Shown one piece after another: positions 49,801 to 64,000 of a DNA stretch of 64,000 bases. The position numbers and the translations under genes were made by a program. The stretch comes from Brachionichthys hirsutus (lineage: Eukaryota): NCBI RefSeq assembly GCF_040956055.1, contig NC_090911.1, positions 1,460,830-1,524,829 on the forward strand. The letters run 5' to 3'. The notes beneath the pieces were generated by a model that saw only the letters and a program-made list of their open reading frames with translations, did no database searches and was not told the origin of the DNA. Position 1 is the first letter of the stretch, and each line of letters opens with the position of its first letter.

Positions 49801-50039
49801 TCTGGGAACAAATGTGTGAGTGTCTTGTATTAAAGTGTGTGTGTGTGTGTGTGTGTGTGTATCCGCAATACAGGAAAGAATAGTATCATCTGCATATAAG
49901 TGAGCATGGCAACCGGTTAATATTAATATTAGAGAAAGTTCACCAAATATCACAGTCATAAAGGAACTATCATGTAAAATGTCTTCTGGATCTGATCCAG
50001 AATGAGGTCTGGAAAAAATATTAACTTTTAACATTGAAA

Positions 50040-50210
50040 ACTCCAGTTAAAAATACACATCAACCCTGATTCACTTTGACTTTTCATGATTGGTGTGTAA
50101 AGACACCAAGAACAATCTAGAACCTCCTGGTGCTGATCCAGATCACCGTGTGGACGGTGTAGATCCAGTTAGGAGGGGAACGAGCTGCTTGGGGGAGGTC
50201 TGCGCTCTCT
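50040..50210 (+). repeat. copy of the dispersed repeat
   Basis: It matches 45966-46130 and the reverse complement of 5330-5530. Confidence 0.7.
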
Positions 50211-50704
50211 GAGTGCTTTTCTATTTCGTTCTTGTGAATGTGGAAATGTTGCGTTGTTTATCGCAGGTTGGTTAACGTTCTATTTCAGAGGCTTCAAGCA
50301 TGTTTGTGTTAAAAGTTAGGAAAATAAATGGGCAGAAAAGAGAACATTTATGTGACTAATAATTTATTTGTTCAAAAATTCACCAGCACCATGAAAATAT
50401 TCCCCCACTTAAAAATGACATTGAGTAAACATGAAAGCACAACAAAGTGCACGTTGCACAGCCGTCACCTGAAACCCGGAAACGAGAGACACGAGGAAGG
50501 AAACGCCTGATTCCAGGCAACGGAACCAAACGCGGATTTTTTTTCCCACCTAATCTTCCGCTGTTTCCGTCTAGATCAGCTCAGTGAGGAAACTCAGAGG
50601 AATATTCCACTCGAGTGGAACTTCCTCAGACGAGGGGAAGTCCCGTTGGTCACCAGGGTGACGTCGGCGGCAGTCTTTCCTGGTAACCGTGGTAACCTTC
50701 CAGA

Positions 50705-52303
50705 CTAAATGTGCAGCCCGTCTTCCAGCAGCTTCCTGGACTGCCTTCGAGACCCGCGCTGGCCGTGATGATGATGATGATGATGATGATCGAGGTCGCC
50801 ATCGTTTGCCCTCATATCTCTGTCCTTCCTCTGACTCCCCCCCTCCCCCTCCCCCTCCCTCTTCCCCCTGTCTTCAGCCCCTGCTCTCTCGAACCGACTC
50901 CTCATGCTCTCGATCTTGCTCCCTCGCCTCTCGTCCTCCGGAGCTGCTCCCCTCCTGGAGTCAGATTCCTCTGGCCTGCCTCCCCCCTCCCTCCCTGAAT
51001 GCTCCTTTATCCACGACGCTTCATGTCTTTGATGTGATTCGGTTCTTCCCGTCTCTCTCTTCTCTCCTCTGCTTTTTGCCACCTCACCTCTCTCATCCCT
51101 CTCTCCCCTGTCCTCCTCAGTCCTCCTCCAGCTCTCTGTCCTGTGGCTCCCTCTGGTTTCTGGTTTGCTCTCACTTTCTCTCCTGGGGGGCTTTTCTTTG
51201 TCACTGCTGCTGCTGCCATGCCTCCACATACGGCCAGTCCCCTCCTCTTTATTCATCACTCCTTCATCGCTTCCTCTCTGGATCTTTGTCTTGCCCCTCC
51301 CCTCTTCTTGCTTTGGTCTACCTGACCCAATCTTTCCTTCCTTGTGTTCATTCCCAGTCTTATTCCACTCCCTTTCCCTTTCCTTCTCACCCGTCTTGAT
51401 TCCTGCACCACTCTCTTCTTTTGGAACGTCTTTCTTGCTCTGGATTTGTTCTTTTCCAGCTGTAGCACGATTCTCAGTTTCTTTTTTCTTTTTTCTGTCT
51501 TTGTCAGGCTGTTCTTTTGAATCCTCCTCTTTGGCTCCTTTCAATGCATCCCTTTTCTGCTCCTTATCTTCCTCTAATTTGGAATCATACTTGTTTTTGC
51601 CTTCCCCCTTCTTTTCGGATTTCTTGTCATCCCCTTTTCCCTCCTCCTTCTCCTTCTTTCCTTTAGGCTCTCTGGATTCTTTCGAGCTCTTCTCTTCATT
51701 GTCCTCCTTGTTATTTTTTAGATTCTGCTTCTCCAGCTCGTCTCTCTTCTTCTTCTCCTGCTCCTCCTCGGCCTTCTTGTCTAGTTTCTCCTCCAAGAGG
51801 TCCAGCTCCTGATCCAGCTCAGCCAGCTTCTCTGGATCAGACTCAAAATCATGGTCGACTTCCACCTCCACCTCCTTAATCTCCTCGTACTCCTCCACCT
51901 CGATGCCATCCATGGTCTTCTGCAGCTGCGTCTTCACCTTGTTCAGCTCCAGGAGGCCGTCCTGGAGTTCCTTACACACGTCCCTGATCTTGGTGGCAAA
52001 CTTGGTTTTGGCACCCTTGCGGAGATCATGGGAGTCTTTGGCAAGGAAGAAAACATCGAGGGCCAGGAAGAGGGCCGACATGACCCCCGTGGTGACGCTG
52101 ATGGCCTGGGCGGCTTTGGCGGCACCTCCTGCAACCCCTAGAATCTGGACTGTGCTGATGAGCTTATCGGTGTTGATCATCAGGGCTTTTCCAGCTCGGC
52201 CCCCCTCCTTCATCACATGCTTGAGGTTGTGGTTCAGGGCCTTTTTGGTAGCACTTTGTGAGTACTTTTCAAAGTCCCACTCGTCTAGGGTGTTCATGCC
52301 CGC
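50705..52303 (-). CDS. ApoL-like gene, large 3' exon: conserved ApoL C-terminal region plus a roughly 400 aa E/K/R/G-rich low-complexity extension ending in His8
   Basis: The acceptor is tcttgcag|GCGGGCATGAAC. It encodes …GVMSALFLALDVFFLAKDSHDLRKGAKTKFATKIRDVCKELQDGLLELNKV…, matching the teleost ApoL motif VFLLMDVVSLVKDSKHLHEGAKSE…ELE.KLEEL. The frame then stays open for about 1.2 kb (EEK…DLDHHHHHHHHGQRG…*). Confidence 0.7.
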   Translation of the reverse strand, partial: AGMNTLDEWDFEKYSQSATKKALNHNLKHVMKEGGRAGKALMINTDKLISTVQILGVAGGAAKAAQAISVTTGVMSALFLALDVFFLAKDSHDLRKGAKTKFATKIRDVCKELQDGLLELNKVKTQLQKTMDGIEVEEYEEIKEVEVEVDHDFESDPEKLAELDQELDLLEEKLDKKAEEEQEKKKRDELEKQNLKNNKEDNEEKSSKESREPKGKKEKEEGKGDDKKSEKKGEGKNKYDSKLEEDKEQKRDALKGAKEEDSKEQPDKDRKKKKETENRATAGKEQIQSKKDVPKEESGAGIKTGEKEREREWNKTGNEHKEGKIGSGRPKQEEGRGKTKIQRGSDEGVMNKEEGTGRMWRHGSSSSDKEKPPRRESESKPETRGSHRTESWRRTEEDRGERDERGEVAKSRGEKRETGRTESHQRHEASWIKEHSGREGGGRPEESDSRRGAAPEDERRGSKIESMRSRFERAGAEDRGKREGEGEGGSQRKDRDMRANDGDLDHHHHHHHHGQRGSRRQSRKLLEDGLHI

Positions 52304-52834: not shown

Positions 52835-53287
52835 CTGTACGAACTCCATACACTCTCTGATGACTTTGATTTCATCCTGGTAGCCCTGGATCATCTTCTC
52901 CAGCTTCTTCCGGTCCATGTTGGAGTGGACCGTGTCTGTGATATTGGCCGTCGCTGAGGTGATGCTGCCCGCCGTGGCCACACCGATCCCCACCGCCGTC
53001 ACAATAATGGACGCACCAAAGGTGAACGGAGCCAGGATGAGCCCGGTGATTGTTGCCACGCTGCCGGCGACGCTGGCCACCCCTCCACCCACAGCAGCTG
53101 ACACCGTTTTCTTGTGGAACTGATCCGAAGCGTCAGCCAGAGCGAGAAGCTCCAGGATGCGATGCTGTAGGGACGCCCCCCGCTGGTTGAAAAGGCGCAC
53201 AAACAGCCGGGCTGCCATGTAGACTCGGTCGGCAGCCTGCTCCATGGCCCTGCAGAGACACGGGGAAAGGACATCGTGTGTTCCAGA
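52835..53287 (-). CDS. ApoL-like gene exon with putative transmembrane/membrane-insertion region (…AMEQAADRVYMAARLFVRLFNQRGASLQHRILELLALADASDQFHKKTVSAAVGGGVASVAGSVATITGLILAPFTFGASIIVTAVGIGVATAGSITSATANITDTVHSNMDRKKLEKMIQGYQDEIKVIRECMEFVQ)
   Basis: The Gly/Ala/Val/Thr-rich hydrophobic helices match the apolipoprotein L family membrane-insertion domain. The donor is GTACAG|gtgagg. The acceptor choice (gaacag|TCT at 53288-53290, giving 151 codons) is inferred. Confidence 0.7.
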
Positions 53288-53806
53288 CTGTTCAAGTTCA
53301 AAGAAATCGTGTCCAAAGTGAATATTGCAAATAAAGATGGCTGGATCAACCAATGAGATAAGCAGCCTCCATAAGTGGAGTAACAAGCCTGTACAAATCC
53401 TGTCAGGGTGACAGCAGAGCTGAGAAAAGAAGCTACCCTCACATTTCCCCTTCATCTTCACTGAAGTTGGATGCCTCGTTCCATTCCGTCCAACCTGGAA
53501 GTCGACATCATAAAACGTTTATGTGGAGGGGAGAGAGGAGACCAATAGACAGAGTGATGGGTTATTGTTTTATTCAACTATGAAGGAGCATTTATGGAAT
53601 CTTTTAAAGGAAAAAAGCACAACAACAACAACAACAACTCGTCTGGTTAAGACAATCAGACAAACCTTTGACTGTATTCCACCACTGCATCAGCTCATCA
53701 GCTTCCTGTAAATGGAAACTCGTCAATAAAAGGCACAGTGAAAAACAGCGTTCGCGTCTGACCCGTCGCCTGATCTAACAAAAATTAAAATGGGTAAAAA
53801 GCTCAC

Positions 53807-53887
53807 CTCCTCGGGGGCCGCAGGGTCGTGTTCCGTTGGGTACGCTGCCATCTCAACGGGTTGGACCACCAGCTCCTCTGAGCTCTC
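53807..53887 (-). CDS. ApoL-like gene exon (ESSEELVVQPVEMAAYPTEHDPAAPEE)
   Basis: The acceptor is tttttcag| and the donor is GAG|gtgagc. It is 27 codons, phase 0. Confidence 0.55.
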
Positions 53888-54137
53888 CTGAAAAACGAAC
53901 GCAGGAGCAACGCTGACAGAAAGTCACTTTCTTTGTGCATCCACTGACGCAGACACCCACAATGTACGATGAACGAAAGCTAACGGCTAACTAGGAAGCA
54001 GCATCTAAATGACCCTGCATGAGAAATGCACCAATTTATTCATGAGATTAGATTTGGTATTGATGAAGTGGATCCATCATTCAAACCCGGGCGGCGTCTT
54101 GATGAGACAAGCTGTTTAATAACATCATAATGCTAAC

Positions 54138-54203
54138 CTGTGCTGGTTTCAGATCCCGCATCTCAACAGCCTCCTCCTCAATAGCAGACATCCTGTCTGG
54201 ACC
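54138..54203 (-). CDS. ApoL-like gene, 5' coding exon containing an in-frame ATG (GPDR-MSAIEEEAVEMRDLKPAQ)
   Basis: The minus-strand ATG is at 54189-54191. The donor is CAG|gttagc. The exon also has an upstream acceptor (cctccacag|), so it could instead be an internal exon. Confidence 0.5.
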
Positions 54204-54514
54204 CTGTGGAGGGGAAGAAACAAAACGTAAGAAAGCGGTAAACGTGTGGAGCCAAACTCAATGCAAGAGACGCTGAATCACACTTTGTGGCGATAGAACA
54301 TGCACGTTGAGACTTTAACAAGCTGATTGGGTTCTTTAATCATTTGAAAAAGCATCGTAGTAAAAAAAGCAGCTTCATCTCATCACCGTTTTCTTTGACC
54401 TGAGATAAGTGAGCAGAGCGCCTTGGTTTCCCTGTGCCCCTGAACGCATCTCATTTTAATCAAAGACGTTGGTGCTCTATTGTGATTTGTGTTATTTATT
54501 TATTAATAAATAGA

Positions 54515-54900
54515 GAACCCACGCAGACACGGGGAGAACCCGGAGAGAACCCACGCAGACACGGGGAGAACCCGGAGAGAACTCACGCAGACACAGGGAG
54601 AACCCGGAGAGAACCCACGCAGACACGGGGAGAACCCAGAGAGAACCCACGCAGACACGGGGAGAACCCGGAGAGAATCCACACAGACAAGGGGAGAACC
54701 CGGAGAGAACCCACGCAGACACGGGGAGAACCCGGAGAGAACCCACGCAGACACGGGGAGAACCCGGAGAGAATCCACACAGACAAGGGGAGAACCCGGA
54801 GAGAACCCACGCAGACACGGGGAGAACCCAGAGAGAACCCACGCAGAGAACCCGGAGACAACCCACGCAGACGCGGGGAGAACCCGGAGAGAACCCACGC
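54515..54900. repeat. 32 bp tandem repeat, about 12 units (cacgcagacacggggagaacccggagagaacc)
   Basis: The 32 bp periodicity is visible. The unit is homologous to the internal segment (ccggagaaccc…agagaaccca…cgcag) of the adjacent SINE. Confidence 0.85.
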
Positions 54901-55012
54901 AGACACAGAGAGAACATGTAAACTCCTCACAGAAAGGCCACAAGCCGGATTCAAACCTGCGACCTTTTCGCTGTGAGGCAGCAGCGCTAACCACTGCGTC
55001 ACCGTGCAATGT
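54900..55012 (-). mobile_element. SINE 3' part / tRNA-like head (same family as 1560-1700), contiguous with the tandem array
   Basis: The sequence is agagaacatgtaaactcctcacagaaaggccacaagccggattcaaacctgcgacc…gctgtgaggcagcagcgctaaccactgcgtcaccgtgc. Confidence 0.75.
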
Positions 55013-55247
55013 TCACGGTAATCATTTTAATACAATATAAAAAAAGGGTAAATACTGAGCGTGTCGATGTCTGTAAATATTTTAAGCGGTCCAAATGAGT
55101 CGGTGAAGCTCAGTGACAGATCAGTACGCACCAAAGCTACGTCAAACTTGGGTGTTTGGGTTTTCTTGACTCGGAAAGACACAACCTAAAAAAGGAAAAA
55201 CAAGAAAGGAGGAGTTAGGAAGGATCCACGACAAGGTAGGAGGAGGA

Positions 55248-55364
55248 TTAAACTATTTTAACATCGTGACATATGCCATGCGCCCAATTTACTCGGGTTT
55301 TCTTCTTGATGGTTCTTTTGCGTCTCAGGCCGCCTCCTTCTGGGTTCTCCGTGTCCTTACTGTC
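55248..55364 (-). CDS. modular gene last exon (DSKDTENPEGGGLRRKRTIKKKTR-VNWAHGICHDVKIV*), containing an internal candidate donor CGA|gtaaat at 55293
   Basis: The acceptor is ggatgcag|GACAGT and there is an in-frame stop at 55248-55250. If the gtaaat donor at 55292 is used instead, the frame continues into ApoL-like exon 54138-54203. Confidence 0.45.
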   Translation of the reverse strand, partial: DSKDTENPEGGGLRRKRTIKKKTRVNWAHGICHDVKIV

Positions 55365-58300
55365 CTGCATCCGCAGACAGAGAGCAACAGAACGGAGGGA
55401 TAGTTCAGCAGCCAGTAGTTCGGTAGTTTATTACGTAACGAATCACGCGGCGCTCTTGTTTTCTGAAAAGCATCTTTCTGGGACCACAGAGATAAAAACG
55501 TAACGATAACAAACTAAAGGCCAACGGAAGTCAAACAGTCTACAAACTTGACCTGGTGTCAGGAACGAACATCTCGCTTCATCTCGCTTCAATCTCTTTC
55601 CTTTTCACACTGAACATTGGGGGAAAATTAGTTTCCCGTTTATTTTGATGGTTTGACTTTTGCTAACTTAAATTCTACTACTTGTGTGAGAATAAATTGC
55701 GATTTCTGGTGCACAATCCTAATTATTTTATTAATGAATAACAATTTAAATGTATATCTAATTATTTATTTGTCAGGATCACAATAAAATGTGTGCGATG
55801 TTTCCATACACGTCAGAGTTCTATCTGTGCTGCTCTTTCTAACTAATAACAATCAATAGATCGTCACGTCCATACCTGATGATCAATTGTTTTGGGCGTC
55901 CTCCTGAAAATTCCACCAAATCCTCCTTTTTTCTCCTGCTAGAAAAAGATCACACACGAAGCATAACTTAAAGGGCCCCCAGACAAAGCGAGACTGCAGA
56001 AGTCCTCACCTTGCTGCCGCTTCCTGCTTCACAAAGATTCTCAGCGCTGGCTGACAGTTCTCCTGCGCCGCCCTTTGAGTTCAGAAAATGAAAATCATCA
56101 ACTATGAAGCCGGTGGTGAAGCTGAAACACGCAACAGAGCTCGACACTCGTTGAAAAGTAGAAAGAAAATATATTCAAAATCTATTTTTAGATGCTCTTT
56201 GCTCGACTTTTTTTATAGTACTCCCAGATGTTTGGAGTGTAATCCATGATTTCGGCCGTCAGCATCAGCGTTGTGAGAAGTGTTACCCTCTCAAAGGTGT
56301 CAAACACGAACACGCCGGACCGCTTCAAGTATGTCTCACCTGTGCCGTCTCCACGAGGCTGTCCCAGCTGGAGGACAGGTCCATCGTGTCCTGGAGCGGA
56401 TCCTGGAGAACGAGACACAATGTTTGGTTGGATCTGCTCAAAGTTCAAATGAGCCTTGAACTGCGGCTAACCATGCCGCAAACAAAACAAAGCAAATTGA
56501 GTCAATGCGGTCACCGTGGTAACGGCTGAACGCTCAGCCAGTTTAGGCTTTTTGAAGATCCCCGCCAACCCCCCCTTCTTCTCCTGAAACAGACGAAAGT
56601 CTAATGAGTTAATAGTCACTCAAAAGCAGGACAAAGAAAAGCTGGCTCAGATTCACCAGGTGTTTGTGTGCCAGCCTCCTCTGTATCATATCATCATCAT
56701 CATCATCAATCGTATCTATCGGCAGAGTAACGGTGGAACTCATTGATTTTATTTTCATTGATTTTATTTTATTTTTTTATTGTTCTCGTTGTCTTCTTGA
56801 GTATAAACTTTTAACTTTAAATGACAGGACTCTGATCCACCGTTGGAATCTTTACGCCACACTACCCCCCCCCCCACTTAAGAAAGCACAACATTCAAAA
56901 CGCAGCCTCAGCGTGTTCAGCCGCTTTCAGAAACGCTGCTACGTGTGAGCACGCTTTCGTTACACATTACCTTGGGGTTTCCTGACAGGCTGTCCACGCT
57001 CCCCGTCAGCTCCTTCCAGTCATCGTTGTCCTGAAGAAGAAGAAAAACAAACGACAGGAAATGACATGCGCAGCAGCAGGTGATGATGATGATGAATATA
57101 TTTATTAGATAGAATGCTAGGGGCCCAGCGCGACTGGCCACACACACCTACCCCGGCCTCCAGTGCAGGCGTTTTAGCTGTTTTCTTGATCAGCCCACTG
57201 AACAGCCCACCTTTCTCCTGATGAGCAGACATCCACACGGCTTCATTCAATAATATCCACTCCACTCATGCTGAGTGTAAAGAGAACATGGAACAAAGAC
57301 TATTGTCCCCCTAGTGGTGCCTTTAACGGCAGGTAACCGTGGTAATGCACACAGCGACGACTCTGACCTCATCCAATATGTTTTCGATGCTGGCTGATCT
57401 TTTGAAGATGCCGGTCAGACCTCCTTTCTTCTCCTAAACATGACAGAGTTCTGTTATCAGGGGGCAGAAACTGCAGTGACATTCCCAAGTCCTGCATGAA
57501 CCGGATTTGGCTCGCTCATTAGGAACAGGGACACGCAATATTCGGATCCAGCAGGTCCGGATTACAGTATAATCTGAAGCTTCAGCACATTATAGATACT
57601 CATGGATCCATCCATCAGTCGCTCTCATTCCTGTTGTGGTGGGGGGGGGGTAACTAAGTACCGTACATGTAATGTATTGTTTATGTCACACTTATTCACA
57701 CCCTCATTAGTTTTGATTTAAAATAAAAAGGAATAAGAATTACCAAAACTCAACGTGTAACTTTTTGAAGAGAAATCATTTTGTTTTCCTTTTAAAATTG
57801 CTAAAAAGAAATACATAAAAATAACCGTATGGTTAAAATATAACCTACTTGGACTGAAAATGTTCGATGAGTGAGTTTCATGTCTGCCCTTTGCTTTTTA
57901 TTCTTTTATTTATTTGTATTGTATTTATTTGTAAATGCAGCGCTAAACAGCAACAACAACCACGAAAAGCACAAAAAGTCGTTCCTACAGAAGCGAAGGA
58001 AAATCGAGATCAAGTGATATGAAAGCACCTTCGACGCGGCGGCGTTGGACAGATTCTCACAGCTACGAGAGAGATTGTCACTGGGCATCTCCTGCTTCTG
58101 AATTCAAACAGGGGGGGGGGGGACAAATATTTATTCCATCCAAAACAAGAAGCTATTCAAACTAATCACATAAATCAATGAAATGCAGGACCTGGTCCGC
58201 TGCAGCGTCCTCTGCCGGCTTCTGCGGCTTCTTAAACAGGTTGCTGAAAATGCTTTTCTCCTGAAAGATCAATCGTTGTCACTGAGCAACAATAAAGAAA

Positions 58301-61300
58301 TGTCTGTGTTTGTGTCGTTTGCTGCTCACCTTAGTGCTGCTATTCTCAGACAGGTCGTCAACGCTGCCCGCCGGCTCTTTCTGAGCCTCTTTGTCCTGAA
58401 AATGAATGAATGAATGAATGAATGAATGTTGCAGGACAACCCCAGATCCGGCGTTCCTGCCTAATGTCGCCCTAACCCCAACAGTCCACCACGTGATCGT
58501 TCTTGCACCCACTTTGTGCCGCAGCGTCCGAGTCACCAATCAGCTTTGGTAAACAGTAAACAACATCCAGCATGGTGGCACAGTGGTTAGCGCTGTTGCC
58601 TCACAGCAAGGTCACAGGTTCAAATGCAACTTGGGGCCTTTTTGTGAGGAGTTTGCATGTTCTCCCCGTGTGTGCGTGGGTTCTCTCCGGGTTCTCCGGC
58701 TTCCTGCCACTTCCAAAAACTTGCAACGTAGGTGAATTGTTCATGCTAAATTGTCTGTAGGGGTGCGAGTGCCTGCCTATGTGTGGCCCTAATGTGAACT
58801 GGCGATATGTCCGGGGTGTACCCCAACTCTCACCCGTAGATTGCTGGGATAGGCTCCAGAACTTAAAAGCAAACAGATGCGTTCTTGTACCTCTCCAGGA
58901 TGAGCAGCTTCATCAGGTTTGGGAGCCTTCTTGAATAATCCACTAAATATTCCTCCTTTCTCCTTAACATACACGTTCAGACAATGAATACTTGTTCTTA
59001 GGGTTATGTCATTATTCAGATTCCTTTTCTAAAGCATGTAGAATACAGAACAACGCAAAACAATCCTCACTTTGGTGTCCAGAGCTTCGTTGCTGCCTGA
59101 GAGCTCACTGCCTTGCTTCTCCTGGGAGAGAATTAAAGCACAGGAAGCCGAGGAGGCGACAGAACCGTCACATTTCATGAATTACTGCGAGGAGCAGCTG
59201 AGCTCAACCATCACTTTTCTAAACTTGTCACAGCTTGACTTAGAATCAGTCTAGGAAGTTCTGTGAAAGCACAATGATTGGCTGAGTGTGACGTCGAGAA
59301 CAACAGAAATGTTGATCGAGATGAATGCAAGAAATAAAACACTTTTTTTAATCTGTCCATAATTCTTAAAGATGTTTTTAACTGTAATTCTAAACTAGCA
59401 AAGGCCTGAAAACAGAAGAATATTAATTCAACTGTTCAATGACATGCAAAAATCTGACCTTGGCGTTGGCAGCTTGGGGAAGATCGTCACTGCTGGCTGA
59501 CGGATCCTTCCGTGCCGAGACGTTCTCCTGAAACAGGAATTAAATTAAATCCAGATTAAACGTCCAGAACGTTTACGTTTACGTTTAAGTGTTTCAATCC
59601 GAGTGCATCGTGTTTTTTGTCATGCCTTTTTTTCTACATAGCGGAGGCTGCTTTGCTCAAACACGGATTCAGTCACGCTAAGCTGTGTGAGAAACCCTTC
59701 GGAGCATCGTGAGAGGTTTTCATCTGTTCAGTGGTGTTTTATATTTATGGTGTAATTTGGATTCCTTTAATTACACAGATCGTTAAAGCCTGCTGAATGA
59801 CAGACACGCAGCTAGTATGTTAGAGTGAGCCCTGTCAGTCCGTGCATCCGTGCGTCCGTGCGTCTGTGTGAAGAGGCCGGGCCTTTGTACCTCTCCAGAT
59901 GTTTTTGGGGTCTTCCTGAGGAGTCCACTGAACAAGCTGCCTTTCTCCTAGAGGGCAGAGAACAAATTCAAGAAAGTTGATGACTTATTTTCTTGACACT
60001 CTTCTCTTTCTTTCGGCTGAGGGGTCGCCACAGCAACCCAACGTTCTCCACTTCACCCTGTCCTTTGCATCGTCCTCCCCAACACCAGCCACTCTCATGT
60101 CCTCCCTCACTACGTCCATGTCTCTTCTCCTGGGTCGTCCTCTAGCCCTGTCCTTTGCATCGTCCTCCCCAACACCAGCCACTCTCATGTCCTCCCTCAC
60201 TACGTCCATGTCTCTTCTCCTGGGTCGTCCTCTAGTCCTGTCCTTTGCATCGTCCTCCCCAACACCAGCCACTCTCATGTCCTCCCTCACTACGTCCATG
60301 TCTCTTCTCCTGGGTCGTCCTCTAGCCCTGTCCTTTGCATCGTCCTCCCCAACACCAGCCACTCTCATGTCCTCCCTCACTACGTCCATGTCTCTTCTCC
60401 TGGGTCGTCCTCTAGCCCTGTTCGCTGGCTGTTCCTTCCTCAGCATCCTTCTACCGATACGGTTTTTCCTCGCACTGGTTTATCGGGCCGTTAGCGACGA
60501 GTCTGACCTTGCGGACTGACCTTGTTCTCCGACAGGCTGTCGGTGCTGGAAGACAGCTCAGTCTGTAACGACGCGGCGCCCTTCACACAACAAAAGGGTT
60601 ACTCATGTCAGAATGAGAGATGGGAACAATATTCCAGGCAGTTTGTAAATACATGCTTTACCTCCTCCAGTCTGGGGTCCTCTGACAGTTTGGGGGATTT
60701 CTTAAACATGCCACTGAAAAGGCCTCCTTTCTCCTGATGATTGAAGAAAAACCACACCGTAAAAAATGACTTGTCCGTTTTAGCTGCTGTTTGCATTTGG
60801 GTAAAACTGCCTCGGTGATTTGACAGGCAGCCTGTGCTCGGAGAGGAAGGGGAATCGTCCCCTTCGTCGTAAGATTCGTGTTAGACTAAATAGCTGCAAC
60901 AAAATAATGTGCGTCAGTGACCAAATAGGCTTTCATAGATAAAACAGGAAGTAGAAGCATCGCATTACAGATGGAAGATGGGTCGTTATAAAATGAATTA
61001 CAGGTCGGTCGCCGGGACGAATCATTTCGGAGCCTTACCTTGGTGGGGGCGTTCTCAGAGAGCGTCTCGGCACCGTCTGGTGGGTCTGTCGGCAGCAGCT
61101 GAACACCATGAAACAAAGATTAACAAACACAAAATAAAACTACAGAAATCCAGCCGTTTGATCTTCCTGCTGCTCACATGGACGCCACCTTCTTTATTCC
61201 CTTTCTCTTCACAGCTCAAGAACACGGAAGTCCGTGCATTTCCACTAACAATCAGTGCGTATAAATGTGGGTCACACATTTTCACCTTGCCAGCCGCTTC

Positions 61301-63629
61301 CTCTCTTGGTATCTTGGGAGACTTTCGGATTATCCCACCAAAGAATCCTCCTTTCTCCTAGCAACATGCGATTAAATTACACTCTCAGTCCAGTAACGGC
61401 TCAGCGAATCCAGTCAGATCACAGATCTCTGAGCTCACCTTTGAGTTTTCAGACAGATTATCATTACTGCCTGATAGGTTTTCACGTACAGACTGTTGGT
61501 CCTGAAGGGCAGATGAACTGGTTCAGTTGGGTAATCTACTGGATTAAAGTAATCCCACTGAAAGACTTTTCGTCACCTTGTCAGTCGGAGCTGCTTCCAC
61601 TGGCTTCGGAGACTTCCTGAACATCCCACCAAATATTCCACCTTTTTCCTGAAGCAGAAGTGCATGATTGATCACGCAGGATCACTGAGGAGGATCTAGT
61701 CTGTACGTAAACGTTACCTCTGCTCCAACACAAGGCAGAATGAAGACGCCGCTCACCTTACCGCTGCCGTTTTCAGACAGACTCTCACTGCTGGCAGACA
61801 ATTCAGCGTTAACGGTCGGATTCTCCTGAAGCACCAACAAGAAAGAAGGGATCGTTCACATGCCATGAATGCCATCAGCACTTCTGTGAGATGAGGCACG
61901 AAGCCATCTTTGAAACAGACCTGTGCAGATGCCTCATCTATTGACTTATTGGAATGTTTCTGCTCACGAGAGAATAAGCCTCTCATTTCCTGTAAATAAA
62001 AAGGCCGGGGTAATATATTAAAACATATATTTGTGATCATATTAACTCAGTAAATGCCAGTGACGTTGAAAGACGTCAATCTAAATCCAAATCTAAGGAC
62101 AAAAGACGTCAACTGGGATTGAAACTGAATTCTGACTCTCTTCGACAGCCAATGCAAAACGATAGGAACACACATTGTTTTTCCTGATGAAAGAAGAAGC
62201 TTTAATCTTTCATTTGGTCTTTGCATAGTCTAGTACCTAATATTCTGTGGGTCTCGAAAAATAGGGCAAAATTAGCTGAAAAAGGCTGGCACTGAATGAG
62301 TTAAATGAGAAAGAGCATCACATGCTAAAGATGCTGCACAAAACCACAAAATGACCTACTTGGGACTTTTCAGAACTTTTCTCTTCAGCGTCTTCTGCCT
62401 CTTCAGGATCGCTGTTTGCTCTGACCTGGAAATGGAGCGTAACAGAATGAGTTGGGGCAGGAAGGCACCAAATGTGGCACATTCAGCATCTGAACATAAG
62501 CAGAAGCACTGAAGTTACCGATTTGTCTTTGGGAGTCCTCCGGAAAATCCCAGCAATTAGATCTCCTATGTCCTGAGTAAAACAAAAAGGGGGTGAGAAC
62601 AGAAGCCCTGATGTTTAATGATAAGCTCACTTTAAAGGCAGTTCCTAAACTTCTCAATTTGATTCGATAGTCAACAGAAAATCTCTCGTCTTGCAGAAAA
62701 ATACCGTTTTCCGTTTCTGTCTGCAGAAATCTAATTTTGAAACGGACACATCTACGTTGTCGTTCCTTTTTCTCTGGCTTCGTCAGAACGGACGTTTGAA
62801 CAGAATAAAGGCCTTTAAAGTTTATTTTCTGTCTCTCTTACCTGTTTAGGTTCTGCATACTTTTCCTGCTTGTTCTTCTCTCTGGATTGTTCTCTTTCTG
62901 TGCCTGGTTTCTCCGTGCTGGCCTCGGGACTCGGTTCTCCTTTAGCCTTAGACAAAATCAGCACAGATTGGTTTCAGACAAAGAATTTAAGTCGTAAATG
63001 CTTCAGACAACTTTGCTGAGAACTGAGAACGGTCACAAATGGTGGGATATTTGGTAAAATATGAAAGTGCAGGTTTTAAAAGCTGACAGTGAGATAATCT
63101 CATGTGTCCCTGGGGGGTATTTTCTGTCTGAGAAATGAGTAGAAATGAAGGAAATGATGAAAAGACATTAAAATATCAGGGGGAAGAAACAAAAATCAAC
63201 TGGGTAGTTTAGCTGTGCTTCTTAATTACATTTCCTGTTAGTTGCTGAGAGATGAAAAGGTTCTAAAGCTGCTTCCCCAGCACATGAGAAGTGAACCGAC
63301 TTTCAAGTTGAACAGCTTTTTAACTGCGCTTTGGACAAATCCCACTCCCGGAACGAGCCCAAGCTCACATTCTGACCAGACTCAGCCCTCGTTGTGTGTA
63401 CGCGACAACGCTTCGTGGAACGATGTGAAAGTGGCGCACCAGATAGGAAGTGTCACGGACAGACCCCCATTCCTATATCTCACTTTGAATGCAGTGGTGT
63501 TATGAATCCTAGCATCAAATCCCACGTGTACAAAAAACAAAGACACACACAGACACACACCGGTTTGCTGCCTGGAGCCTGTTTGGTCAGGACAACATCA
63601 GATGTTTCTTCTTTATCACCGTCATCCAT
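55248..63629 (-). CDS. novel modular gene (span) of at least 25 tiny phase-0 exons (54-105 nt) alternating between cationic EKGG[LI]FSG[LM]FKK.PK… modules and acidic …LS.S.DSLSEN..K modules. The first coding exon is 63561-63629 (MDDGDKEETSDVVLTKQAPGSKP). The last exon starts at the 55364 acceptor.
   Basis: A regular series of minus-strand exons each has AG acceptors (…cag|GAGAAAGG…) and strong GT donors (…|gtgagc, gtaaag, gtaggt). The verified exons are listed as separate features. The family is unidentified. Confidence 0.6.
55876..55938 (-). CDS. modular gene exon, cationic module (QEKKGGFGGIFRRTPKTIDHQ)
   Basis: The acceptor is ttttctag|CAGGAGAAAAAAGG and the donor is CATCAG|gtatgg. It is 21 codons. 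Confidence 0.6.
57152..57217 (-). CDS. modular gene exon, cationic module (EKGGLFSGLIKKTAKTPALEAG)
   Basis: The acceptor is ctcatcag|GAGAAAGGTGG and the donor is GCCGGG|gtaggt. It is 22 codons. Confidence 0.65.
58572..58880 (+). mobile_element. full-length tRNA-derived SINE (about 310 bp) in an intron of the modular gene
   Basis: The element runs from a ggtggcacagtggttagcgctgttgcctcacagcaaggtcacaggttcaaatgc… tRNA-like head, through a gagtttgcatgttctccccgtgtgtgcgtgggtt… body, to a …ggataggctccagaac tail. It is the same family as the minus-strand copies at 1560-1700 and 54900-55012. Confidence 0.85.
58891..58962 (-). CDS. modular gene exon, cationic module (EKGGIFSGLFKKAPKPDEAAHPGE)
   Basis: The acceptor is tgttaag|GAGAAAGGAGG and the donor is GGAGAG|gtacaa. 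It is 24 codons. Confidence 0.65.
60050..60420. repeat. 90 bp tandem repeat, 4 units, derived from an interspersed-repeat segment (gtcctttgcatcgtcctccccaacaccagccactctcatgtcctccctcactacgtccatgtctcttctcctgggtcgtcctctagccctg)
   Basis: The 90 bp period is exact and begins after ttcggctgaggggtcgccacagc, a common teleost repeat motif. It is intronic. Confidence 0.8.
60662..60733 (-). CDS. modular gene exon, cationic module (EKGGLFSGMFKKSPKLSEDPRLEE)
   Basis: The acceptor is atcatcag|GAGAAAGGAGG and the donor is GAGGAG|gtaaag. It is 24 codons. It is followed at about 60512-60571 by an acidic-module exon (GAASLQTELSSSTDSLSENK). Confidence 0.65.
61285..61356 (-). CDS. modular gene exon, cationic module (EKGGFFGGIIRKSPKIPREEAAGK)
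   Basis: The acceptor is ttgctag|GAGAAAGGAGG and the donor is GGCAAG|gtgaaa. It is 24 codons, phase 0. Confidence 0.6.
62519..62572 (-). CDS. modular gene exon (DIGDLIAGIFRRTPKDKS), a degenerate cationic module
   Basis: The acceptor is tactcag|GACATAGG and the donor is AAATCG|gtaact. It is 18 codons. Confidence 0.55.
62842..62946 (-). CDS. modular gene exon 2 (AKGEPSPEASTEKPGTEREQSREKNKQEKYAEPKQ)
   Basis: The acceptor is tctaag|GCTAAAGG and the donor is AAACAG|gtaaga. It is 35 codons, phase 0. Confidence 0.55.
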
Positions 63630-64000
63630 CACATAACTCTAAGAGGGGGGAGAGAGAAGACCTGCAGCTGAACAGCTGCCCAAAACAGAATCCAACAAAT
63701 GTTGTAGAATTTGAATAAAGCGGGAAGATTACAAGGATCTTTTTTCCACTTCCTCTGAAATAGGTAGATCAAGCATCTGTTCGAAAATGTTCCTTAAAAA
63801 GTCAACACATTTCCTGAGGCCTCTGTTGACGGATCAAGCATGGGGCAAGCTAGCAGACAAGCAGGACTGTTACTGGTCTGTCCTCTACTGGGAGCCACTC
63901 GAGTTTGAATATTTCACATGAACACAAACGTAACTGTCTAAATCGACACAAACGTTACAGGTATGACCGCGAGTTCCCTCTTCTGCCTCCAGTAAGAACA

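Follow-up and report, generated by a model that had tools for sequence, protein, structure and literature searches.

A module array and an ApoL domain probably share a single apold1a gene in Brachionichthys hirsutus

Introduction

The minus strand of a 64,000-nucleotide (nt) stretch of Brachionichthys hirsutus DNA (contig NC_090911.1, positions 1,460,830 to 1,524,829; the whole stretch is called the window) carries a series of short exons encoding alternating basic and acidic modules and, further downstream, exons encoding an apolipoprotein-L-like (ApoL) domain. Do the two halves belong to one gene and, if so, through which exons are they joined? An earlier sequence-only reading of this locus had proposed that the last modular exon, ending at 55293, is spliced directly to the exon at 54203-54138, which would yield a fusion or readthrough product of an architecture unusual for an innate-immunity family; alternatively, the halves were taken as separate genes with ApoL translation starting at ATG 54191. 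Coordinates are those of the window, and as all features of the gene are on the minus strand, upstream corresponds to higher coordinates.

Comparison with other teleost sequences indicates that the interval is very probably the middle of a single protein-coding gene, the orthologue of teleost apold1a (apolipoprotein L domain containing 1a; si:rp71-1g18.13). The predicted splice path across it leads from 55293 through a micro-exon at 55185-55132 to 54203, and the form containing this micro-exon is, as we infer from the orthologues, the main form of the mRNA.

Modules and ApoL domain in teleost proteins and transcripts

A query of 515 amino acids (aa) spanning the junction was covered over 96-100% of its length by dozens of annotated teleost proteins, all of them carrying the Pfam domain PF05461 and named apold1a or si:rp71-1g18.13. 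These proteins read, from N- to C-terminus, modules, GGGLRRRRTIKKKRRVVSFRIKKTLP, MPxIEExVEM, VEMAAYPTE and ApoL domain. When the modular part alone was used as the query, 30 proteins were found, 17 of which carry PF05461. The best protein matches of the gene as a whole are teleost, with the top identities (at most 90%) in percomorph fishes; the leading matches, named apold1a or si:rp71-1g18.13, are 74-90% identical over the aligned part, the apold1b and 'apol1' groups being lower. Likeness to the apold1a models extends to the order of the parts, with modules, a GGGLRR[KR]RTIKKK.R exon, a VVSFR[VI]KKT micro-exon, an M/LxxIEExVEM exon, VEMAAYPTE, ApoL domain, coiled coil and charged tail following one another in the same way in the models of NCBI, Ensembl and UniProt, and exon boundaries agree in Lampris and Stigmatopora. 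Nothing essential differs; in number of modules, the window copy, with about 12 basic ones, exceeds most annotated models.

Transcript-level evidence for this architecture is provided by Logan contig L002, from a cyprinid sequencing run. It is 3,094 nt long and free of introns, with an in-frame stop upstream of the ATG and a 3' untranslated region, and its open reading frame (ORF) of 679 aa consists of an N-terminal extension, VVSFRVKRTLP and the ApoL domain. Other Logan proteins of this kind come from contigs too short to hold introns (for example P0045, 669 aa in 2,531 nt, and P0119, 699 aa in 2,541 nt). In Poeciliopsis, P0128 starts with the true N-terminus MEACMMKPE (MEACMMKPEVKKKPKPPKP...), continues with one-to-one orthologues of the modules and proceeds into the VVSFR, MPPIEES and QESTVEV exons. 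The annotated models and L002, which are sequences of other species, thus place the module array and the ApoL domain on one mRNA.

On these grounds, namely the coverage by annotated proteins and the L002 transcript, the proposal that the modules form an N-terminal extension of an ApoL protein stands, and the comparison with teleost ApoL gene models that the sequence-only reading had called for finds both parts in one model for many teleosts. The terms fusion and readthrough do not fit, as three teleost paralogue groups have this conserved layout as their standard, and neither does the term unusual, since dozens of annotated apold1a, apold1b and 'apolipoprotein L, 1' proteins share it. As a public gene model, the gene is already known, and its architecture is the standard one; in the literature searched no mention of apold1a or apold1b was found.

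A conserved micro-exon between the polybasic exon and the ApoL half

Several elements of the proposed direct junction were recovered. The donor near 55293 ends the last modular exon (boundaries are given in Table 1 and marked by a slash); reading on past it adds 14 further codons (VNWAHGICHDVKIV) before an in-frame TAA; the acceptor at 54203 scores 10.0 bits, compared with a gene mean of 9.4; and since both exons are in phase 0, KKKTR/GPDRMSAIEEE is joined in frame. With all modular exons divisible by three in length (phase 0/0), this frame match is weak evidence, expected about one time in three by chance. What did not hold is that 54203-54138 is the next exon: the main path is predicted to enter a micro-exon, to which tblastn, acceptor strength, two orthologous loci and a survey of homologue models all point.

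Splice sites were scored with a position weight matrix (PWM) derived from 32 donors and 33 acceptors of the gene itself. The acceptor at 55185 (tcttgtttttccttttttag/GTT) reaches 13.7 bits, the highest value in the interval. Using tblastn with four orthologues (P0001, P0004, P0006 and P0014; the species covered are Cynoglossus, Lampris, Poecilia and Nematolebias), a VVSFR[VI]K[KQ]T segment was aligned at 55185-55159, directly after the high-scoring segment pair of the polybasic exon, and 8-9 of its 9 amino acids are identical to those of distant percomorphs. The orthologous micro-exon occupies the same place in the genomic loci of Lampris incognitus (L003; VVSFRVKQTLPRVPKLSAQ, 57 nt) and Stigmatopora nigra (L004; VVSFRIKTTLPKMPKLN, 51 nt). 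These loci share the polybasic exon, the VVSFR micro-exon and the M/LxxIEE exon, all in phase 0 and with the same boundaries. In both, the last of these exons is 63 nt long and starts 4 codons ahead of the M/L of M/LPxxEE (AREKMPLIEE, SSDKLPVLEE in orthologues), as the GPDR-MSAIEEE exon of the window does. The motif [ST]F[RQ][VI][KR][KR]xLP occurs in 72 of the 78 models that, among the 120 best homologues, extend N-terminally of the VEMAAYP anchor by 60 residues or more. Its presence also in the apold1b paralogues (TFRIRRILP) indicates that the micro-exon is under coding constraint.

From the length of its orthologues and the quality of its donor, the micro-exon of the window is most likely 55185-55132. 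A 45-nt version ending at 55141 (donor GAC/gtagct) would also be in frame but is less likely; it was rejected as the main form, its donor being poor and its 15 codons contrasting with 17-19 in the orthologues. A 163-aa query restricted to the junction, intended to find transcript fragments showing the micro-exon donor, had no match at an expectation value (E) of 0.001 or below among 240 candidates.

Could the micro-exon be left unused, 55293 being spliced directly to 54203 (...KKKTR/GPDRMSAIEEE...) in the main form? The resulting ORF of 1,354 codons is open, the acceptor at 54203 is a good one, the P0131 model from Muraenolepis displays precisely such a join (KRRKTITRRKR/SSDMLPLLEEE) and the motif is also missing from a few other models (P0019, P0021, P0037, P0047, P0065 and P0091). 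Against this stand the presence of the motif in the great majority of the models, the near identity of the micro-exon residues in distant percomorphs, an acceptor stronger than that of 54203, and the conservation of the motif in both the apold1a and the apold1b paralogues, a sign that its coding use is under selection. As the main form, the direct splice is therefore very unlikely. All N-terminal exons being in phase 0/0, skipping of cassettes, this join included, can yield minor in-frame isoforms, and the direct join is plausible as at most a minor exon-skipping isoform.

The interval between the two halves

The micro-exon divides the interval into two introns. The upstream one, of 107 nt, holds the whole read-through extension with its stop, and the closest AATAAA or ATTAAA is an ATTAAA at 55031, past the micro-exon. 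The downstream one measures 928 nt in the window, where a repeat resembling a short interspersed element (SINE) and a tandem array lengthen it; its orthologues measure 185 nt (Lampris) and 121 nt (Stigmatopora). The SINE-like dispersed element lies at about 55030-54880 and has a tRNA-like head (ggtgacgcagtggttagcgctgctgcctcacag...); other copies are found at 58694-58570 and 1580-1705, the three being 78-85% alike, and tblastx also matched the element in the Lampris locus. In the intronic copy, a 32-base-pair (bp) piece of the 3' part has been expanded into a tandem array of 12.9 units (54512-54915). A search of Rfam with 53500-56000 gave no match at E<=1, which indicates that the element is not a curated RNA family. 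The gap 54204-55247 had been described as containing only a SINE and its array; both are indeed there, together with the conserved coding micro-exon that the word only had passed over.

This structure bears on the possibility of two transcription units, a modular-only gene that ends, by read-through, at TAA 55250-55248 or earlier and is polyadenylated there, and an ApoL gene with a promoter in 54204-55131 and its start at ATG 54191. Some annotations are split in this way: in Syngnathoides, P0122 ('dao-5-like') and P0016 ('myosin-1') lie on one contig, P0121 in Cottoperca is a modular-only model, and P0011, P0012, P0013 and P0020 are ApoL-only models. In addition, ATG 54191 has an A at -3, and there is the ATTAAA at 55031. 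However, a conserved coding exon lies between the supposed stop and the supposed promoter, and the stop itself falls inside a 107-nt intron between two conserved coding exons. The interval that would hold the promoter is only 121-185 nt in the orthologues and in the window consists mostly of SINE and array. Where the window has the methionine of ATG 54191, Lampris has L, Garra I and Chanos V; judged by these alignments, it is not a conserved start. Finally, the cyprinid cDNA contig L002 joins both parts, and split models cut through complete module exons. Two separate genes are thus highly improbable.

The nature of the splits could be followed in several models. In the Stigmatopora nigra locus (L004, 4832-10001), the basic-module exon that contains the ATG of the annotated apold1a is complete and has an acceptor of its own (ttcaag/GAAAAAAGTATTTTCAGCGGGAATG, encoding EKSIFSGM), and several intact module exons between the two gene models were left unannotated. 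P0016, P0012 and P0013 begin at a methionine within or just past the micro-exon, whereas the start of P0011 corresponds to the polypyrimidine tract of the following intron. From these exon alignments, the annotation splits of the locus look like artefacts, and many annotated apold1a models that start at a methionine inside a module are probably 5'-truncated or split. Logan contig L001 (P0015) was considered as evidence for an ApoL start and discarded, as a Nextera adapter directly abuts MAAYPTE and the contig is 5'-truncated and uninformative. In public databases the orthologous locus, in models of Syngnathoides and Lampris among others, also appears split or misnamed as 'nucleolar protein dao-5-like', 'myosin-1' or 'forkhead-associated domain-containing protein 1'.

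Several observations speak against a single gene spliced through the micro-exon. Several public annotations split the locus, with modular-only models (P0121 from Cottoperca and P0122 from Syngnathoides) named 'nucleolar protein dao-5-like' and ApoL models (P0011, P0012, P0013, P0016 and P0020) whose start is close to the micro-exon or farther downstream; alternative promoters or poly(A) sites of minor use are possible. The donor at 55293 is weak, at 0.4 bits compared with a gene mean of 7.1 (standard deviation 3.1); it nonetheless coincides with the end of the orthologous exon, as RRRRTIKKKRR/VVSFR in other species shows. The donor of the micro-exon, TTG/gtgcgt, is non-optimal and outside the ten best donors in the interval when scored with the small gene-specific PWM. 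The splice path is predicted from comparison with other species, and the putative function of the array discussed below is read from sequence motifs. On balance, we favor a single gene spliced through the micro-exon. For the annotation of the window, this means that two apparent genes are to be merged into one apold1a model with at least 34 exons, a 54-nt micro-exon and an incomplete 5' end; the exon-by-exon comparison likewise shows a route to the repair of split or misnamed public models.

Table 1. Positions of the exons and introns of the candidate apold1a gene in the window (a slash marks an exon border)
Feature	Positions	Strand	Length and phase	Borders and content
Module array	55876..63638	minus	26 coding exons of 51-105 nt each, phase 0/0	basic/aromatic and acidic Ser-rich modules, mostly alternating
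Polybasic exon DSKDTENPEGGGLRRKRTIKKKTR	55293..55364	minus		final modular exon; donor CGA/gtaaat at 55293/55292
Intron	55186..55292	minus	107 nt	holds read-through ORF extension and TAA 55250-55248
Micro-exon VVSFRVKKTQTPKFDVAL, most likely form	55132..55185	minus	54 nt, phase 0	acceptor ttttttag/GTTGTG; donor TTG/gtgcgt
Intron	54204..55131	minus	928 nt	more than half SINE-like repeat and 32-bp tandem expansion
Exon GPDRMSAIEEEAVEMRDLKPAQ	54138..54203	minus	66 nt, phase 0	after ccctccacag/, begins GGTCCAGACAGGATG; internal ATG 54191-54189
Five further coding exons	53887-53807, 53705-53666, 53494-53443, 53249-52835, 52303-50705	minus		stop TAG 50707-50705

The module array

When the micro-exon is counted, the 34 exons from 63638 to 50705 form an open frame of 1,372 codons. 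The encoded layout, from N- to C-terminus, consists of about 12 basic, Phe-containing modules with acidic Ser-rich modules between them, the polybasic linker, the ApoL domain and a long charged tail. From 63638 to 55293, 27 coding exons were rebuilt, the polybasic exon included, each bordered by AG and GT, divisible by three in length and in phase 0. The basic/aromatic module (consensus EKGGxFxGxFKKxPK; about 12 copies, net charge 0 to +4) and the acidic Ser-rich module (consensus SxSxDSLSEN..K, net charge 0 to -5) mostly alternate along the array, which is colinear with P0121 from Cottoperca and P0128 from Poeciliopsis. In Cynoglossus, Lampris and Stigmatopora, the orthologue of the polybasic exon that closes it reads ...GGGLRRRRTIKKKRR. 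The exon at 63638 matches about residue 142 of the Cottoperca protein (P0121), so that the gene begins outside the window and its first ~140 codons (MEACMMKPEVKKKPKPPKP...) fall past position 64000.

Searched against Pfam, the modular half had no match, nor did the modular-only orthologues P0121 and P0128; a sub-threshold match of the modular half to Tk-SP_N-pro (E=0.003) was treated as noise.

The ApoL half

The five 3' exons encode the conserved VEMAAYPTE/WWNTVKGW segment, an ApoL domain in which two hydrophobic helical hairpins are predicted, a stretch of coiled coil and the charged tail. The domain matches PF05461 with 117.3 bits (cut-off 25.9, E=1.2e-33) over profile positions 43-297 of 298, and its exons are 84-94% identical to those of orthologues. 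The hairpin-type hydrophobic sequences are AAVGGGVASVAGSVATITGLILAPFTFGASIIVTAVGIGVATAGSITSA and ILGVAGGAAKAAQAISVTTGVMSALFLALDVFFLA. An AlphaFold2 model of the linker and ApoL domain, computed from a 46-sequence alignment, was poor (mean predicted local distance difference test (pLDDT) 53, predicted template modelling score 0.44): it is helical around the hairpins, the hairpins themselves have a pLDDT below 50, and so do residues 1-87 of the modelled segment, which form the linker. The tail encoded by the last exon (50705-51800) is ~380 aa long and rich in Glu, Lys, Arg and Gly, with a run of eight His near the C-terminus (~50765-50790); its purine-rich coding strand accounts for the marked GC and AT skew in the 50001-52000 bin.

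When the ApoL domain (52835-53249 and 51900-52303) was compared with the PDB, weak matches to two components of alpha-pore-forming toxins, NheC (6tao) and MakE (6w08), were obtained (E=0.006, query residues 20-113), which may hint at a distant link between ApoL domains and ClyA-type toxins.

Relation to other ApoL proteins

The layout recurs in the paralogues apold1b (si:cabz01007802.1) and 'apolipoprotein L, 1', which have hydrophobic/basic and Ser-rich acidic motifs, a [T]F[RQ]IRRILP linker and the ApoL domain. The modules of apold1b differ in sequence (QNPGMFxGMMQKVNPFKS), and identity to the first sequence of alignment A1 is ~62-66% for apold1b and ~35% for 'apol1'.

Mammalian APOLD1 (VERGE) belongs to the same domain family; the fish genes were named after APOLD1 by annotators, and the putative link to human APOLD1 (12p13) is through these source names. 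Mammalian APOLD1 is short, ~250-280 aa, and is not known to carry a modular N-terminal array or a long charged tail. It is described as a membrane protein with a flexible helical hairpin rich in Gly, Ala, Val and Ile that inserts into membranes, is possibly fusogenic and is unlikely to form pores (PMC11726835), and the human protein acts at endothelial junctions and Weibel-Palade bodies (PMC9973481). A survey of the family traced APOLD1 to amniotes only (PMC8557400). The human APOL1-6 proteins share the Pfam family PF05461; an N-terminus of alternating modules is not described for them. Their cluster is a mammalian one, specific in large part to primates and rodents and associated with innate immunity (PMC8557400); according to PMC11726835, APOLD1-type proteins lack the pH-gated pore features of APOL1. 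The innate-immunity framing of the sequence-only reading thus fits APOL1-6, whereas annotators place the present gene with APOLD1, an endothelial membrane protein. Teleost APOLD1-type proteins carry a long, conserved, exon-modular and probably disordered N-terminus that is believed to be missing from the short mammalian protein; this is of mild interest for the membrane biology of APOL and APOLD1 proteins, the architecture itself not being a discovery of this finding.

A possible role for the N-terminal array

What might the array do? One possibility, which we regard as tentative, is a charge-regulated tether. The short Gly/Phe/Lys motifs could sit on acidic membranes, and the acidic Ser clusters appear phosphorylatable. 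The array ends in a conserved polybasic linker resembling the MARCKS effector domain (RRKRTIKKKTRVVSFRVKK; RRKRTIKKKTR-VVSFRVKK) and fitting the protein kinase C (PKC) consensus R-x-x-S-hydrophobic-R. The array could act as a multivalent tether that attaches the ApoL hairpin domain to membrane or cytoskeleton, and this domain would insert in membranes as proposed for mammalian APOLD1. The comparison with the MARCKS effector domain is a functional analogy only, drawn from a run of basic residues that includes Phe and a Ser placed as in PKC-type sites, cf. RRKRTIKKKTRVVSFRVKK; homology is not claimed. The MARCKS effector sequence is KKKKKRFSFKKSFKLSGFSFKK.

No signal-peptide-like hydrophobic segment was found in the N-terminus of the orthologues, so that the array is probably cytosolic. 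For the same reason RRKR, considered as a furin-type cleavage site, seems unlikely to be a luminal protease site. The low pLDDT at the end of the array is consistent with disorder of the array, without being proof of it. The annotation splits raise the possibility that the locus may release modular-only and ApoL-only products via alternative poly(A) sites or promoters. A wider proposal, in which the ~25-exon array and MARCKS-like linker constitute an undescribed type of multivalent, phosphorylation-switched membrane tether governing how the ApoL hairpin inserts or clusters, cassette splicing tunes the number of modules, and modular-only and ApoL-only products are also made, is doubtful when all its parts are taken jointly.

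Other features of the locus

Between the exons equivalent to 63638-63561 and 62946-62842, the orthologues of Cottoperca, Syngnathoides and Polymixia carry a small extra segment (...GSKP-VGLKGVMKGLQIKSSP-KASREPSP...). A counterpart was not found in the window intron 62947-63560, where it may have been lost, have diverged or have been missed.

In a tblastx comparison made for synteny, the 10-kb flanks of the Lampris and Stigmatopora loci matched the window only in repeats and paralogous ApoL exons, these flanks being short. The Stigmatopora locus has a second ApoL-domain gene at 1-2101 of L004, ~8 kb upstream of apold1a, which encodes 528 aa and runs off the locus; its exons gave paralogous tblastx matches to the ApoL exons of the window.

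At 58401-58428, the pyrimidine-rich tract that immediately precedes the acceptor of exon 58395 consists of an (AATG)7 microsatellite (minus strand, cattcattcatt...). A 90-bp unit in 4.1 copies, 99% identical, occupies 60056-60421 (GRPRRRDMDVVREDMRVAGVGEDDAKDR... on the minus strand), within the intron that separates exons 60521 and 59947. This unit presumably resembles the C-terminal tail of the ORF of a fish retrotransposon lacking long terminal repeats (non-LTR), and the repeat is probably a retroelement fragment recently amplified in tandem.

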